Source: Octopus sinensis
Lineage: Eukaryota
NCBI RefSeq assembly: GCF_006345805.1
Contig: NC_043001.1
Location: forward strand, 16,740,001 to 16,804,000
Length of the DNA stretch: 64,000 bases
Direction: 5' to 3'
Shown: positions 1-62,051 of the stretch, in pieces
Layout: the number at the start of each line of letters is the position of its first letter
Numbering within the stretch: position 1 is the stretch's first letter
Program-made: the position numbers and the translations under genes
Notes under the pieces: model-generated
The model's database searches: none
What the model saw: the letters and a program-made list of their open reading frames with translations, nothing else
What the model was told of the DNA's origin: nothing

Positions 1-270
1 TGTCTCCTACGATTTAGATTCCTAACTAGTCCCACCATTTTGCGGTGCAGTTTAACCAAAACCGGGTATCTTATAGTCGTGATTCATTTCGAGCCCTTCT
101 GGGTATTAGCGCGCGTCTACGATGAGTCTACGATTAAAAAAAAAAATTACCATAATTTTTTCCCATTTTTAATGCATTTTTGTGCTATTATATAAGGGAA
201 GTAACTCTCTAAAAATGCTTATATAGTTATTTCCCTTACAAACCCGAGCAACGCCGGGCGATACTGCTAG
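1..270 (+). mobile_element. Non-autonomous Helitron, 3' portion
   Basis: Ends in hairpin CCCGAGCAACGCCGGG then ...CTGCTAG|T; same 3' terminus as the copies at 12824, 48826 and 58023. Confidence 0.7.
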
Positions 271-301
<31 letters not shown>

Positions 302-408
302 AACAAAACCTGCTAGTATATATATACTACATATATATATATATAGATATATATATATATATATATATATAGATATTATATATATATATATATATATACT
401 ATATATAT

Positions 409-685
409 AAGGAAATGAAGAAAATCTGACAAAATAATTTAAGTAATTTAAGTAATTTAATTAGGTGAAAGTTCTTTTTAACCGGTTGCGCATTTGTTAT
501 GCTTATCAAAAGTTTTTCCTCTTATCCAGATAAGAGGGAAAAAAAATTTTGATAAGCATAACAAATGCGCAGCCGGTAAAAAGAACTTTCACCTAATTAA
601 ATTACTTAAATTACTTAAATTATTTTGTCAGATTTTCTTCATTTCCTTTTTTATATATCACACCTGTGTTCTACATCTCCTTTTT

Positions 686-690
<5 letters not shown>
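409..690. mobile_element. Fold-back hairpin element in (TA)n, probably PLE pseudo-LTR derived
   Basis: Near-perfect ~118-bp arms 409-526/529-648 plus a one-sided extension; flanked by (TA)n. Confidence 0.6.
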
Positions 691-729
<39 letters not shown>

Positions 730-886
730 ATATATATATAATATATAATATATATATTATTTATATAATATACCATAATATATACATAATATATATACTA
801 TATATATTAATATATACAAACATAAATATATATGTATACGTGTATGTATATATGTATATGTGTGTGTGTAAGTATGTATAAATGCA

Positions 887-3578: not shown

Positions 3579-3810
3579 ATAATTATCGCCAAGCTAATAT
3601 GGTAGTCTATAAATATAAGACTAAAGCTGCCGCTGATTAGCTCCAAGAGGCCATCGCCTCTAGCTTGCTATATGGCCTCTTGGAGCTAATCAGCGGCAGC
3701 TTTAGTCTTATATTTATAGACTACCATATTAGCTTGTTGATAACTATTAATATCCAGTAACGCTGCCGTAATCTCCTTTAGAGAGACTTAGAAATTTTAA
3801 TATTTCTATT
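3579..3810. mobile_element. PLE-type fold-back element (family shared with 10261 and 14441)
   Basis: Arms ~3580-3656/3672-3748, tail ending TAGAAATTTTAATATTTCTA, (TA)n on both sides. Confidence 0.7.
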
Positions 3811-7356: not shown

Positions 7357-7935
7357 GAAATGCGTTAGTTCAAATAATGCGCATGAATGAAAGCATATAC
7401 GTCAACAGGGACCATAGTCGCTCGAAAAGTGCCGATCGAGAATTCTCAATACTGACGCGTCAGTTTCGACAATTTCCGTTGCTTCATCAGTTAACACAGC
7501 TCAGCTTCGGCTATTTCGGGACTCGCTTCGCCATATATATTTATGTTTTCGCTATCGAAATGATTGGATGATTTAGCGATTCGTTAATCTGTAAACATAA
7601 AATTAATATAAATAGCAGTTTGCAATGTTTCACAAAAAAAGGAGAATTACGAATTTCACTAAATGTGACTAGGGTGTTAGGAAACACCTACATTGCTAGA
7701 AATAAGAGCTAAATCGCTCTAAAGTGTAGTTAACGCACATGAATGAAAACGTATACTTTTCGGACGATTATGGTCCTTGTTGGTGTATATGTTTTAATTC
7801 ATGTGTGTTGACTACAGTATTAGAGTGATTTAGCTCTTATTTCTAGCAGTATAGGTATTTCATAACAGCCTGGTCACATTTAGTGACATTTGTAATTCTC
7901 CTTTTTAGTGAAACATTGCTTTTCATATTAATTTC
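7357..7935. mobile_element. PLE-type remnant with HHR plus fold-back copy
   Basis: Diverged arms ~7600-7756/7783-7935; 7377-7430 is an inverted homolog of 7755-7806; ends on (TA)n. Confidence 0.6.
7446..7494 (-). ncRNA. Hammerhead ribozyme motif
   Basis: ttaa-CTGATGA-agcaacggaaattgtc-GAAA-ctgacgcgtcag-TA-ttga. Confidence 0.7.
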
Positions 7936-7977
7936 ATATATATATACTATATATATATAATATATATATATATATAT

Positions 7978-10260: not shown

Positions 10261-10722
10261 ATATTAGTTATCGCCATACTAATATGGCATTCTTATAAAA
10301 ATAAGAAAAAAGCTGACCGCTTATTAGCTCCATGAGGCCATCGCCTTAAGTTAGCTATTTGATACACAAACTGTATCCATATAACCGAAGCTAGGTAAAT
10401 AAAACCTTTGAACAGAGATTGTCGGAAGCGACACCTACTGGTTTGGCTACGCTGCATTGAAAAGGGGCAATACCCCGAAACGCGTCTGTAGCTGCCGGCC
10501 AAGTAGTGTGGAGCGACTGACCTCCCTTGTTCAAAGGTTATATGGATACAGTTTGTGTATCAAATAGCTAACTTAAGGCGATGGCCTCATGGAGCTAATA
10601 AGCGGTCAGCTTTTTTCTTATTTTTATAAGAATGCCATATTAGTATGGCGATAACTAATATTTTCCGGGAACGCTGCCGTTGTTCTCTTTTAGAGAGACT
10701 TAGTAATTTTAATATTTCTATT
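10261..10722 (+). mobile_element. PLE-type fold-back element with HHR (10451-10492)
   Basis: Near-perfect arms 10261-10385/10536-10662; gctgca-TTGAAAA-gggg caata cccc-GAAA-cgcg-TC-tgtagc. Confidence 0.8.
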
Positions 10723-16719: not shown

Positions 16720-17096
16720 CTTTGTTTCAGTCATTTGACTGCGGCCATGCTGGAGCACCGCCTTTAGTCGAGCAAATCGACCCCAGGACTTATTCTTTGT
16801 AAGCCTAGTACTTATTCTATCGGTCTCTCTTGCCGAACCGGGGACGTAAATACACCAGCATCGGTTGTCAAGCGATGTTGGGGAGACAAACACAGACACA
16901 CAAACATACACACACACATATATACATATATACGACGGGCTTCTTTCAGTTTCCGTGTATCAAATCCACTCACAAGTTTTGGGTCGGCCCGAGGCTATAG
17001 TAAAAGACACTTGTCCAAGGTGCCACGCAGTGGGACTGAATTTGGAACAATGTGGTTGGTAAGCAAGCTACTTACCACACAGCCACTCCTGCGCCT
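16720..17096 (-). mobile_element. SINE family B
   Basis: Full-length homolog of 33015. Confidence 0.85.
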
Positions 17097-17467
17097 ATAC
17101 ATATATTGCAAAAAACATCCTGCAATAAATTTATGAGTCTCAACTTGAGAGAATTTCTACTTACTGGTTAATACTATTAATTAATTGTCTTTTATAAAAG
17201 ATTTATAAAATCTTTTTTATCTAAATCTGTATCAACATTGAAATATATCTTATCTTAATGAGCTAAAACATCCAGATTGTTTTTTTTTTTAGATAACTCT
17301 GAAATTTGTTGCCAAATTTACGAAGTGTAATGTTTCATATCAGTTTGCAGAAATCCTTTTCAAATAATTCTAGATGCCTTATCTGCAGTGGGTTTTTGTT
17401 AGTTGTAAATGAAAACTTTTCACTACCAAGAGTATTCGGTTTCACATTTTACCTTTCGACAGAAATA

Positions 17468-17689
17468 CGAGGGGATGACGAAAAGTTCTTGTTTTTTAAG
17501 GGGATCGCGAAAGGCCTGACTGAAGGCCCTAACTTACAAGTTCTTTTACAAGGCTTAGAAAAACTGAAGGACTGCTGCAATATGTGTGTGAATATGAGAG
17601 AGGAATATATTGAATAAAAAGAATCATAATTAACTGATCCACACGTATTTTCTTTTACCCAAAGCCAGGAATTCTTCACCACCCCTTAG
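17468..17689 (+). mobile_element. Internally deleted mariner-like element
   Basis: TA|CGAGGGGATGACGAAAAGTTC ... GAATTCTTCACCACCCCT; peptide GLEKLKDCCNMCVNMREEYIE* resembles a mariner transposase C-terminus. Confidence 0.55.
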
Positions 17690-17940
17690 TATACTTTTCA
17701 TCTCGACCTAAAGAAATCTGTTTACTCAAGTAAAGCCTTTTAGTTACTGCTTCTTAAAACAGCAATATTCTGAAAATTCTAAGAGATATCTTTCTTTATT
17801 CAGTATTTTAAGTGTTTTTTTTACTGCGCTTTACTCTGTGACGGGGTAGATAATCTGTGCTGTTATATGCAAAGCGGTCATTATGGTCAGGAAGGTTAAA
17901 AGTGAGCGCTCGATATTGAAATTAGAAAACATTTATTTGG

Positions 17941-18425
17941 CTAAAAGCTAATATTTCGTACTTATCTGAGTTTCACGTTTCTGATTTTCAAACAAAATCT
18001 GAACGAAAGAGCATTACACGTGAGATTTTACAGGAACTTCGAGATTAGTTGGAGGAAATTGATGAGGGTATTGCCCGAATGATGCACTGAATGTACAACG
18101 CAAATAACTCGTGGTGAGATTTCGATTCAGAGCCTAAAGAAGAGGAAAACATCCAGCAAAGCGTACCATCCGAGGCTTTAACGTTAACGCCAATCCCTCT
18201 TTCTAGACAGGCACTTCATTTATCAAACCCAAAAGGATGAAAGACGACATTGACTTCGGTGGCATTTGATCTCAAAATGTCGGGTACCGAAACAAAACTA
18301 CTGCAAAATATCCTTTACAAATCTCGTATAATTCATCCAATTTGCTACGTATGAAATTAAAAACTGTTCGAAGAATATTCAGAAAAATAAATTGACATAT
18401 GATCAGCTGCATGTGTAAAGATAAA

Positions 18426-18465
<40 letters not shown>

Positions 18466-18949
18466 TTTATCTTTACACATGCAGCTGATCATATGTCAAT
18501 TTATTTTTCTGAATATACTTCGAACAGTTTTTAATTTCATACGTAGCAAATTGGATGAATTATACGAGATTTGTAAAGGATATTTTGCAGTAGTTTTGTT
18601 TCGGTACCCGACATTTTGAGATCAAATGCCACCGAAGTCAATGTCGTCTTTCATCCTTTTGGGTTTGATAAATGAAGTGCCTGTCTAGAAAGAGGGATTG
18701 GCGTTAACGTTAAGCCTCGGATGGTACGCTTTGCTGGATGTTTTCCTCTTCTTTAGGCTCTGAATCGAAATCTCACCACGAGTTATTTGCGTTGTACATT
18801 CAGAGCATCATTCGGGCAATACCCTCATCAATTTCCTCCAACTAATCTCGAAGTTCCTGTAAAATCTCACGTGTAATGCTCTTTCGTTCAGATTTTGTTT
18901 GAAAATCAGAAACGTGAAACTCAGATAAGTACGAAATATTAGCTTTTAG
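17941..18949. repeat. Long palindrome 1, ~490-bp arms around (TA)n
   Basis: 17941-18429 is the reverse complement of 18462-18949; about 3 differences noticed. Confidence 0.95.
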
Positions 18950-18953
18950 GATT

Positions 18954-19147
18954 AAATCAGATTTAGGATTAAATCCAATTTTATAGTAAAATATTATATA
19001 ATATTAATTAGAGACAAAACCACTATTTTGCAGAAGACATGAAACAATTGTAGTGGCGGTTTTTTTACTTTTTATTAAAATGTTATGTATTAATTAAGTC
19101 TTTCCTTGTTTGTTTTGCAAAATAGTGGTTTTGTCTCTAATTAATAT

Positions 19148-19183
<36 letters not shown>

Positions 19184-19667
19184 TAATAAAAGGAATTCCA
19201 ACCTTGTCTGATTTTCACGTTTTATTTACAATCTTATAATGATATAAGATAATATAATAAAATAAAATAAAATAATAGAATGTTAAATGTTCATTCTGAT
19301 TGAACTAGTACTTTCATGCATTAAATTCTGCAATCTTCAGGTTCATGTAGTAGTGGTGACAAGGTCGGAATTCCTTTTATTAATATTTCTTCTATACACA
19401 TCACACACACCCGTATATATATATATATATATATATATACGGGTGTGTGTGATTGTGTATAGAAGAATATTAATAAAAGGAATTCCGACCTTGTCACCAC
19501 TACTACATGAACCTGAAGATTGCAGAATTTAATGCATGAAAGTACTAGTTCAATCAGAATGAACATTTAACATTCTATTATTTTATTTTATTTTATTATA
19601 TTATCTTATATCATTATAAGATTGTAAATAAAACGTGAAAATCAGACAAGGTTGGAATTCCTTTTTA

Positions 19668-19699
<32 letters not shown>

Positions 19700-19893
19700 A
19701 TATTAATTAGAGACAAAACCACTATTTTGCAAAACAAACAAGGAAAGACTTAATTAATACATAACATTTTAATAAAAAGTAAAAAAACCGCCACTACAAT
19801 TGTTTCATGTCTTCTGCAAAATAGTGGTTTTGTCTCTAATTAATATTATATAATATTTTACTATAAAATTGGATTTAATCCTAAATCTGATTT
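18954..19893. repeat. Long palindrome 2, ~460-bp arms around (TA)n
   Basis: 18954-19413 is the reverse complement of 19440-19893; mirror ORFs 19287+ and 19321- in the ORF track. Confidence 0.95.
19508..19552 (+). ncRNA. Hammerhead ribozyme motif (mirror copy 19301-19345, minus)
   Basis: tgaac-CTGAAGA-ttgca gaatttaa tgcat-GAAA-gtac-TA-gttca. Confidence 0.8.
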
Positions 19894-19926
19894 TTTCCCT
19901 GTAAATTGGATTTATTCCCTAATATT

Positions 19927-19978
<52 letters not shown>

Positions 19979-20935
19979 TGAAATTTATCTTTACACATGC
20001 AGCTGATCACATGTCACTATACATGTTACTACAAATATAGGTAGAAGATTCTTGAACTTTCCTGGAACCCGTAGATACAATAAAATCTTTAACACGCAAC
20101 AAAAGTTTCCTTTTTCTTGTCCTAATGTTATGTCGTATATCAATAAGCAACGGATGACTCAAGCCTGCACCGGATGCACTTGTAGTGACAAATCTAAATG
20201 TCATCTAGGACAGGAGTGCGATATATCTTCTGTAGTTTATCAGGCACAGGTTTCAGCAAACTACGACGATGGTCATACAAATATCAAACGTTACATCGGA
20301 GCTGTGGAAAGAAAATTTTAAGTTAGATATAACAACCATCTTTCGAATTTTAGATACTGTAATAAGAGACATTCAACAAGGCTTTCGGCTTTAATCTAAA
20401 AACTTGGAGACGAAGGGGCCAATTGCAAATAACAAATGGAAAATCCTCTCAAAGTCCATATCCTATATTAACGGATCTAAAAAATGCCCAGTGTGTTCGC
20501 TTGAACAACTGTAGCTATTAAGACACTTGAGAACCTCCAACGAACATACATTCGAGGAATGAGATTTTCTCTTTATGTCCATATTTCAACAAATACATCT
20601 TTTCGGAACTTAAAATTAGACCACTGGATACGTATTAGACCATTAACAAGTGGTTAACGCCTGCTTGACATCGAATTATTGTAACGTTGGTTATCTCCCT
20701 TGTGTTTTTCCTTTTGTCTTATTTACAAGCGTTTCTTGTTTGAACGTTATTTGCTTAAAAGACAACTGACAAACGATCTTGCTTTCAGCTTGATAAATGG
20801 TGGAAGAAATTATTATTTCGACCTGGAAGCCCTGGGTACCTATAATTGCAAAATTTGTGGTTTTTAATTTGAAATTATCTTTATTCTCTTAGCTGATCAA
20901 GTGCTTTTCTACGTGTCAAAGTTCTACCAAATAAT
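19979..20935 (+). mobile_element. Decayed Penelope-like element, GIY-YIG region (second lineage)
   Basis: CTC..KCHLGQECDISSVVYQAQV...KRYIGAVERKF*VRYNNHLSNFR..HSTRLS, with stops and frameshifts. Confidence 0.75.
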
Positions 20936-21088
20936 ATGTATATACACATACATAAACATCTGCTGCTTACTATTAACAAATGACACCTAATAATTATTTA
21001 ACCTGACTGAACACAACGTTATGACACCCAATCAGTGCTGGCGTCCTACTTGTTGATATGGCCAGATTCTAGTGAATCCTGTAGCTAA

Positions 21089-21565
<477 letters not shown>

Positions 21566-28624: not shown

Positions 28625-29100
28625 ATTTCAACAATGAGGGCAAAATTAATTAATTATAATCAATTTCACCAAGTGTTCAGTATGCAAAGGGACCATTCAA
28701 GGCGAATTCAAATATTACATTATATAAAAGGGCTTAGTAAAATAAATTACTTTGCCGCATACTGAACTCATTAGAAATAGCAGCTAAAAAACTTTTTTAA
28801 AGCTATTTCTAATACTTAAAGAAAATCTCTCTCATATATGTGTTTGCTTAATTCAACTCACAAAGTTTGGGGGTAAGGACATCGAAAATCAAATGCTAAC
28901 GTTATGCGTACGTTCTCGAATAACCTTAGCATTTGATTTTCGATGTCCTTACCCCAAACTTTTGTGAGTTGAATTAAGCAAACACTATATATGAGAGAGA
29001 TTTTCTTTAAGTATTAGAAAAGCTTTAAAAAGTTTTTTAGCTGCTATTTCTAATGAGTTCAGTATGCGGCAAAGTAATTTATTTTACTAAGCCTTTTATA

Positions 29101-29102
<2 letters not shown>
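28625..29102. mobile_element. PLE-type fold-back element
   Basis: Arms ~28723-28899/28927-29102 plus tail 28625-28722; related fragment at 28485-28570; (TA)n flanks. Confidence 0.7.
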
Positions 29103-29154
<52 letters not shown>

Positions 29155-41148: not shown

Positions 41149-41280
41149 TATACATATATACATGTATATATATACATATATACATGTACATATAAATGTG
41201 TATGCGTATAAATGACTGTTACGGAGACATAAACACACCAGCATCAGTTGTCAAGCGATGTTTGGATATATATATATATC

Positions 41281-41475
41281 CCAACATCGGTTGACAACTG
41301 ATGCTGGTGTGTTTATGTCTCCGTAACTTTGCGGTTCGGCAAAAGAGACCGATAGAATAAGTACTAGGCTTACAAAGAATAAGTTCTGGGGTCGATTTGC
41401 TGGAGCAAAGGCGGTGCCCCAGCATGGCCACAGTTAAATGTCTAAAAGAAATAAAAGAAAAAGAATAAAAGAATA
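41281..41475 (+). mobile_element. SINE family B, 3' half
   Basis: Homology to 33230-33420. Confidence 0.8.
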
Positions 41476-61713: not shown

Positions 61714-62051
61714 AGAGTGGTCGTATAATGTCAACATAACGTGACAGTCTCGTAAAGGGAATTACACCACCGCTATATAGCCCTAGGAAGCATCGACGGG
61801 CAAGACCCAGAAACATGCATGTCTTCAGGCTGCTAGTCCCAGCTGGCGGGGGTGCTTGCTTCCCCTTTGCAAATATAAGGACACAGGAAATGTGTCAAAG
61901 CCGACAGGAAGCATCGATGTTTCCTAGGGCTATATAGCGGTGGTGTAATTCCCTTTACGGGACTGTCACGTTAGGTTGACATTATACAATCACTCTATCG
62001 CTCCACCACCGCTCATGTCTCTTTGAGACATTTAGAAATTCAATATTTCTA
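61714..62051 (+). mobile_element. PLE-type fold-back element with partial HHR
   Basis: Arms 61714-61796/61914-61996; ggg caaga ccc a-GAAA-catgcatg-TC; tail TAGAAATTCAATATTTCTA. Confidence 0.65.

Follow-up and report, generated by a model that had tools for sequence, protein, structure and literature searches.

Two near-perfect palindromes stand back to back in the window analysed here, which is a 64,000-nt stretch of contig 5 (G000:C5:16740001-16804000). They occupy 17941-18949 and 18954-19893, each is centred on a TA microsatellite, and the locus reads A-TA-A'-B'-TA-B. The near-identity of the arms bears out the initial annotation, which had reported two adjacent TA-centred palindromes with arms of ~490 and ~460 bp, and the arrangement is far beyond chance. 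In our judgement there is about an even chance that it represents a very young local inverted duplication, left by repair of a TA break in which both ends would have folded back. Coordinates below are positions in the window unless a contig is named. The window is AT-rich, abundant in microsatellites and free of N gaps, and it belongs to an assembly of 2.72 Gb. Comparisons with other loci draw on a survey of 1.864 Mb (~0.07% of the genome), made up of 464 kb around and including the window plus 14 chosen blocks of 100 kb each.

Anatomy and junction of the two palindromes

The first palindrome consists of arm A (17941..18430, plus strand), a (TA)15 hinge (18431..18460) and arm A' (18461..18949, minus strand), an inverted copy of A. 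With the TA tract excluded, these arms measure 490 and 489 bp and show three differences, namely two substitutions (18086/18804 and 18374/18517) and one 1-bp indel (18177/18713). Arm A, the original flank, is single-copy except for a SINE-like piece of ~74 bp (18207-18280), and A' ends in single-copy DNA. The second palindrome begins with arm B' (18954..19413, minus strand), an inverted copy of B, and turns on a (TA)13 hinge (19414..19439). Its arms of 460 and 454 bp, again without the TA tract, have no substitutions and four indel events (4, 2, 1 and 1 bp). Both hinges are self-complementary (TA)n without a spacer. Arm B opens with element b1 (19440..19673, minus strand), the stub of a family present in many copies; it has a short inverted end and, on one side, a ~27-bp tail that adjoins the (TA)13 hinge. 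Element b2 (19672..19930) is likewise multi-copy, lies between TA tracts and carries an internal 41-bp inverted repeat; it is whole in B and truncated in B'. Beyond it come a third TA tract (19922..19977), a 38-bp inverted copy of the end of A that we call a' (19978..20015, minus strand, three substitutions), and element C (20016..20959, plus strand), an old, broken and 5'-truncated coding repeat. An Rfam search of 17000-21100 returned 41 matches, all to miRNA models under their gathering scores and all on hairpins or TA hinges, and no hammerhead.

Where A' meets B' (18945..18975, plus strand), only four bases, 18950-18953, belong to neither arm. They are contained in a local direct repeat that the initial annotation had given as a 13-nt duplication (18946-18958 and 18963-18975); the duplication is confirmed and is actually 14 nt long (18945-18958 and 18962-18975), with its copies 17 bp apart and 5-nt microhomologies on both sides of the join. 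The terminal 5-nt word of A' also occurs in B', and the sequence continues for 9 nt along B', after which it re-anneals through a second 5-nt word 17 nt back and then runs on. Among 200,000 trials with random ends and four random bases, 22 produced a local match of this kind over 14 nt; with the start of B' fixed, the figure was 26 of 200,000. The junction is templated beyond chance, the inserted bases being copied from beside the join, and it is consistent with annealing on the B tail twice in a row, through 5 nt each time. Templated-insertion end joining of the polymerase-theta type leaves this pattern.

Microhomology is present at all three joints, as it would be after replication template switching without a two-ended break, with a strand switch at TA, a microhomology jump to B and a switch back at TA. 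Template-switch models for inverted copy-number changes exist (PMC4689423). Nevertheless, we regard this route as very unlikely here. It would need at least four ordered switches, and the reported product of ODIRA is an inverted triplication, whereas the locus holds two copies of each arm.

Arm content and probable order of events

A genome search with arm A returned full-length matches to the two arms only, and the other 40 matches listed (the best 40 of 780) fell on the SINE piece; apart from that piece, arm A is single-copy among these matches. An unplaced haplotig with the A-TA-B allele was looked for among the same best 40 of 780, and none was present. Arm B is made of two common repeat elements, b1 and b2, with a TA tract between them. 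Its parts match separately (query 1-274, 53-264 and 233-491), and arm B as one whole unit has no match outside the locus, in both cases among the best 40 of 2541 candidates. At the nine loci inspected, b1 family copies are variably truncated and often folded back, with a tail on one side; variable fold-back copies lie at L013, L015, L016, L020 and L021. The layout of b1 appears Penelope-like. The b2 copy in arm B is whole, with 93% identity to locus L014 over 19672-19951, and B' repeats the private composite junctions of B.

The view that the arms are of mixed content and not one transposon, put forward in the initial annotation, therefore stands: A is single-copy, B is two separately matching repeats, and the mixed content together with the single-copy state of A indicates a local duplication. 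A single foldback transposon, a MITE and an inverted Penelope insertion were rejected, since the arms are never one unit elsewhere among the best 40 matches scored per arm. For an inverted Penelope insertion, TA would be expected outside and the element junction at the centre; here, TA lies at both centres. We also observed many element-centred inverted repeats in the window (268-800, 2434-2693, 3579-3747, 7597-7937, 10261-10661, 28712-29111 and 61714-61996). In most of them a TA tract lies at one end, and they show a Penelope-like stub layout.

A and B are the originals and A' and B' the copies, because A runs on into the left flank while A' stops, and b2 is whole in B and cut in B'. The ancestral state is therefore A-TA-B. 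This fits the ancestral A-(TA)n-B proposed earlier, with A' and B' as truncated copies, A continuing into the left flank and B' stopping inside b2.

The initial annotation had overlooked a third, older inverted copy of the last 38 bp of A, namely a'. When up to one mismatch is allowed, a 29-mer taken from a' has three matches in the genome, all of them at this locus, on which ground a transposon terminal repeat was rejected. Nor is a' part of element C, because the DNA and protein homology of C begins after it: among 40 scored family copies the DNA matches begin at 20023 or later, and the protein matches mostly begin no earlier than residue 3, which is 20016, with three weak matches of 150 beginning at residue 1. 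The copy ends exactly at the start of this homology. It is likely to be the trace of an earlier fold-back at the same TA site, and the order of events suggested by the layout would be A-TA-a'-C first, b1 and b2 then entering the TA tract, and the double palindrome last. The motifs of element C presumably resemble the GIY-YIG region of Penelope-like elements. Pfam gave two weak, unrelated matches under cut-off and no GIY-YIG or RT domain on element C, and no families on three related ORFs.

Other TA tracts and sequencing-run contigs

To place the locus among other TA tracts, we turn to the 1.864-Mb survey. Before filtering, TA-flank scores of at least 15 were reached in 76 of 769 tracts, swamped by low-complexity matches, and these matches were removed with a purine/pyrimidine-alternation filter before the final counts. 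Inverted complex flanks then remained at 8 of 1483 TA tracts: the two described here, four one-sided copies (arms of ~48, 65, 150 and 360 bp) and two pairs of diverged repeats lying head to head. Control tracts scored in 2 of 1826 cases, one low-complexity and one a diverged repeat pair, neither of them a copy. The contrast of four one-sided copies with none among controls gives p ~0.04 by simple arithmetic, with classes assigned after looking. The longest of the four is a TA-centred palindrome formed by a SINE-like copy at C18:10079348-10080112 (360-bp arms, one substitution, one indel, TA tracts outside). The others are TA-hinged copies at C7:40092004-40092161 (65 bp, three substitutions), at 41218-41327 of the window (48 bp, two substitutions) and at C5:16945791-16946133 (~150 bp, 91%), and these three, with identities of 91-96%, are older. 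The short one-sided copies are thus diverged and the long ones nearly perfect, a contrast to be expected if long palindromes are soon lost, or else if some of the long ones are artefacts. TA-hinged fold-back as a process in vivo is supported by the older diverged examples, one of which lies at the same tract as the double palindrome.

A search for the same double pattern, which the initial annotation had called for, found no second back-to-back pair in the 1.864 Mb. Distinct palindromes whose arms reach 100 bp or more at 90% identity or more number 18 (19 rows, one entered twice), and the pair described here is the only one back to back; one further adjacent pair overlaps. A separate palindrome at C4:80009625-80011477 has arms of ~940 bp that are 94% identical, and its centre is not TA. 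At C13:20025500-20028500, ~3 kb of degenerate TA lies beside a 100-N gap.

The same survey bears on a two-step origin, in which A-TA-B was first duplicated in tandem over ~975 bp (or excised as a circle), with a templated B/A junction, and the middle was then inverted between the two TA tracts. This would give identical letters, because A'B' is the reverse complement of the B/A junction and TA tracts are self-complementary, and it predicts the same junction polarity as well. Local direct duplications do exist, with 14 in the 1.864 Mb, one of 1090 bp and three with TA edges. However, the intermediate needed, with non-TA edges and a TA tract inside, was found in 0 of the 14, a weak objection given that most are short, and the two rare events would have to occur with almost no divergence between them. 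A TA-to-TA flip also cannot make a' or the 48-bp copy at 41218-41327, because TA flanks each of them on a single side, and the nearly equal arms (490 and ~457 bp) would remain without explanation. We therefore consider this origin improbable. The 1090-bp tandem duplication, at C7:40064027-40066211, interrupts a tRNA-like sequence at its left edge and contains short CCCTAA runs. The three TA-edged cases are near-identical direct tandems with indel-rich differences, at C5:16556234 (973 bp), C5:16734674 (591 bp) and C21:12074301 (355 bp), and represent either recent TA-to-TA recombination or uncollapsed haplotypes.

Sequencing-run contigs provide a further view of the locus. Among 24 runs listed, four contained at least half the words; X1, X19, X3 and X20 were compared as contigs over 18461-19143. 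No listed contig, all being from simplified graphs, bridged the 18949/18954 join in any of the four runs, and in the depth bins before the join an extra contig was not seen. Arm A was covered in three of the four (X1, X19 and X3) and not in X20, of which 76% was read. In X1, one 777-bp contig passes unbranched through A and 291 bases further, with A-type letters at all three diagnostic sites and one letter, at 18589, found in neither arm. The X19 contig runs 103 bases past the arm end and is A-type at two of the three sites and A'-type at 18517, and in X3 two contigs continue beyond where the arm stops; in all three runs the sequence that follows is a different one. Of the three A' differences, those at 18804 and 18713 (the indel) were present in none of X1, X19 and X3. 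The A contig of X19 has a depth of 8.25, to which an extra piece over 18461-18500, probably a', adds ~5.2; this depth and the A'-type letter at 18517 could hint at extra A copies, although contig depth is not a copy number and we place no weight on it. X1 and X3 share their letters at 18589 and 18517 while X19 differs, and arm A is therefore polymorphic; arm A in the window may be a polishing mosaic.

The missing bridging contig counts weakly against fold-back of both ends, and it enters into the case for an assembly or long-read artefact, in which the chromosome would carry A-(TA)n-B and the assembly would have combined reads that folded back at TA, some arriving from A and some from B. The X1 and X19 contigs that continue past A point the same way. 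So do the arm differences, most of which are small indels as expected of consensus errors, and the other near-identical TA-bounded duplications in the assembly (three direct and one inverted). Artificial palindromes are known after whole-genome amplification (10.1101/173872). On the other side, the contigs come from simplified graphs described as lossy (PMC12424806), the repeat beyond the join has a depth thousands of times greater, and other individuals may have supplied the runs. The junction shows two template switches in place of a simple overlap, and no N gap interrupts the window. Long near-perfect palindromes occur at only 3 of 1483 TA tracts, which argues against a systematic fault, and the diverged TA-hinged copies point to a process in vivo. 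Graph simplification would be expected to remove a weakly covered connection between unique DNA and a repeat of very high depth. On balance, we hold an artefact to be unlikely, while giving it real weight.

Proposed fold-back repair and its relation to known systems

Fold-back of both ends of a TA break is the reading we prefer. The break would have fallen inside (TA)n between A and B, through cruciform cleavage or a cut by a (TA)n-targeting Penelope-type endonuclease; a retroelement endonuclease is a possible trigger because the tail of b1 adjoins the hinge. Both ends would then have been resected, and each 3' TA end would have folded back, primed on itself and copied ~0.5 kb. After unwinding, the new tails would have been joined by microhomology with one re-priming step, probably by Pol-theta-like joining, and arm length would record the resected length. 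The initial annotation had proposed much of this sequence of events, from the TA break through folding and self-priming of both ends to templated joining. The mixed content of the arms, the spacer-free self-complementary hinges, the templated junction and the older TA-hinged fold-backs speak for it; it does not stand as a unique reading, given that tandem duplication plus a flip yields the same letters. Against it, no listed contig in the four runs crosses the join. Comparison with yeast also counts against it: the longest foldback insertions reported there (10 to >150 bp; PMC11724301) reach about a third of the arm length seen here, and the TA tracts, at 26-30 bp, are shorter than the yeast (AT)34. 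The want of a second double palindrome in 1.864 Mb weighs on the same side.

More tentatively, and with some doubt, (TA)n microsatellites may act as self-priming mirror hinges in the animal germline. After a TA cut, possibly by the endonuclease of the TA-targeting Penelope-like elements that are abundant in this genome, the host flank would be copied in inverted form from one end or from both, and the two-ended form would leave back-to-back palindromes with arms equal to the resected ~0.5 kb. This site would then have done so twice, with 38 and later ~490 bp. If real, the locus documents cleanly, in a natural genome, a single break whose two ends both folded back, and it would link TA fragility, and perhaps cutting by a Penelope endonuclease, to the way in which long palindromes arise. 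The signature A-TA-A'-B'-TA-B is searchable in any long-read genome. On this reading the double palindrome would be a repair scar of which no function is expected. As a single non-coding locus built from known repair steps, it is probably neutral and unlikely to last, and it is a candidate structure seen in the assembly. The individual repair steps are already known; the two-ended, TA-hinged, 0.5-kb form was not found in the open-access literature searched.

Several known systems resemble parts of the locus. Polymerase-theta-type end joining likewise leaves a short, microhomology-bounded insertion copied from within ~20 bp of the join, but it would account for the 4-base junction only and not for the 0.5-kb arms, and its enzyme is a putative one here. 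Element b1 has the layout of inverted Penelope-like insertions, and element C may resemble their coding region. Penelope-like elements favour (TA)n, and the inverted copies that they leave are truncated at the 5' end and bear a tail of 30-40 bp on one side (PMC8557442); there, TA is outside and the truncated element ends are central, whereas here TA is central and arm A consists of host DNA present in single copy. An inverted copy seeded at a short inverted repeat is also a feature of large fold-back inverted duplications, ODIRA and DUP-TRP/INV-DUP (PMC3907307, PMC4689423, PMC4352052). However, these proceed through dicentric intermediates or yield triplication, while the locus is interstitial, ~1 kb and without loss at the break. 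Three copies with an inverted middle are not what we see; there are two copies of each arm and an A'/B' junction.

A one-ended version of the preferred mechanism is described in yeast as local foldback inversion. There, a resected end at a double-strand break anneals to itself through an inverted microhomology, copies the flank beside it, unwinds and joins the other end with 0-5 bp of microhomology (PMC11724301). AT/TA repeats are themselves nuclease targets in yeast, processed by Mus81 and Mre11 (PMC12972899). At our locus, too, the flank is copied inverted, the hinge lies on inverted microhomology, and the join carries 5-nt microhomologies. The yeast events involve one end, inserts of 10 to just over 150 bp and a 41-nt loop (PMC11724301). 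In contrast, both ends were apparently copied here, with arms of ~0.5 kb (489 and 460 bp), on a TA microsatellite hinge and at a natural locus.
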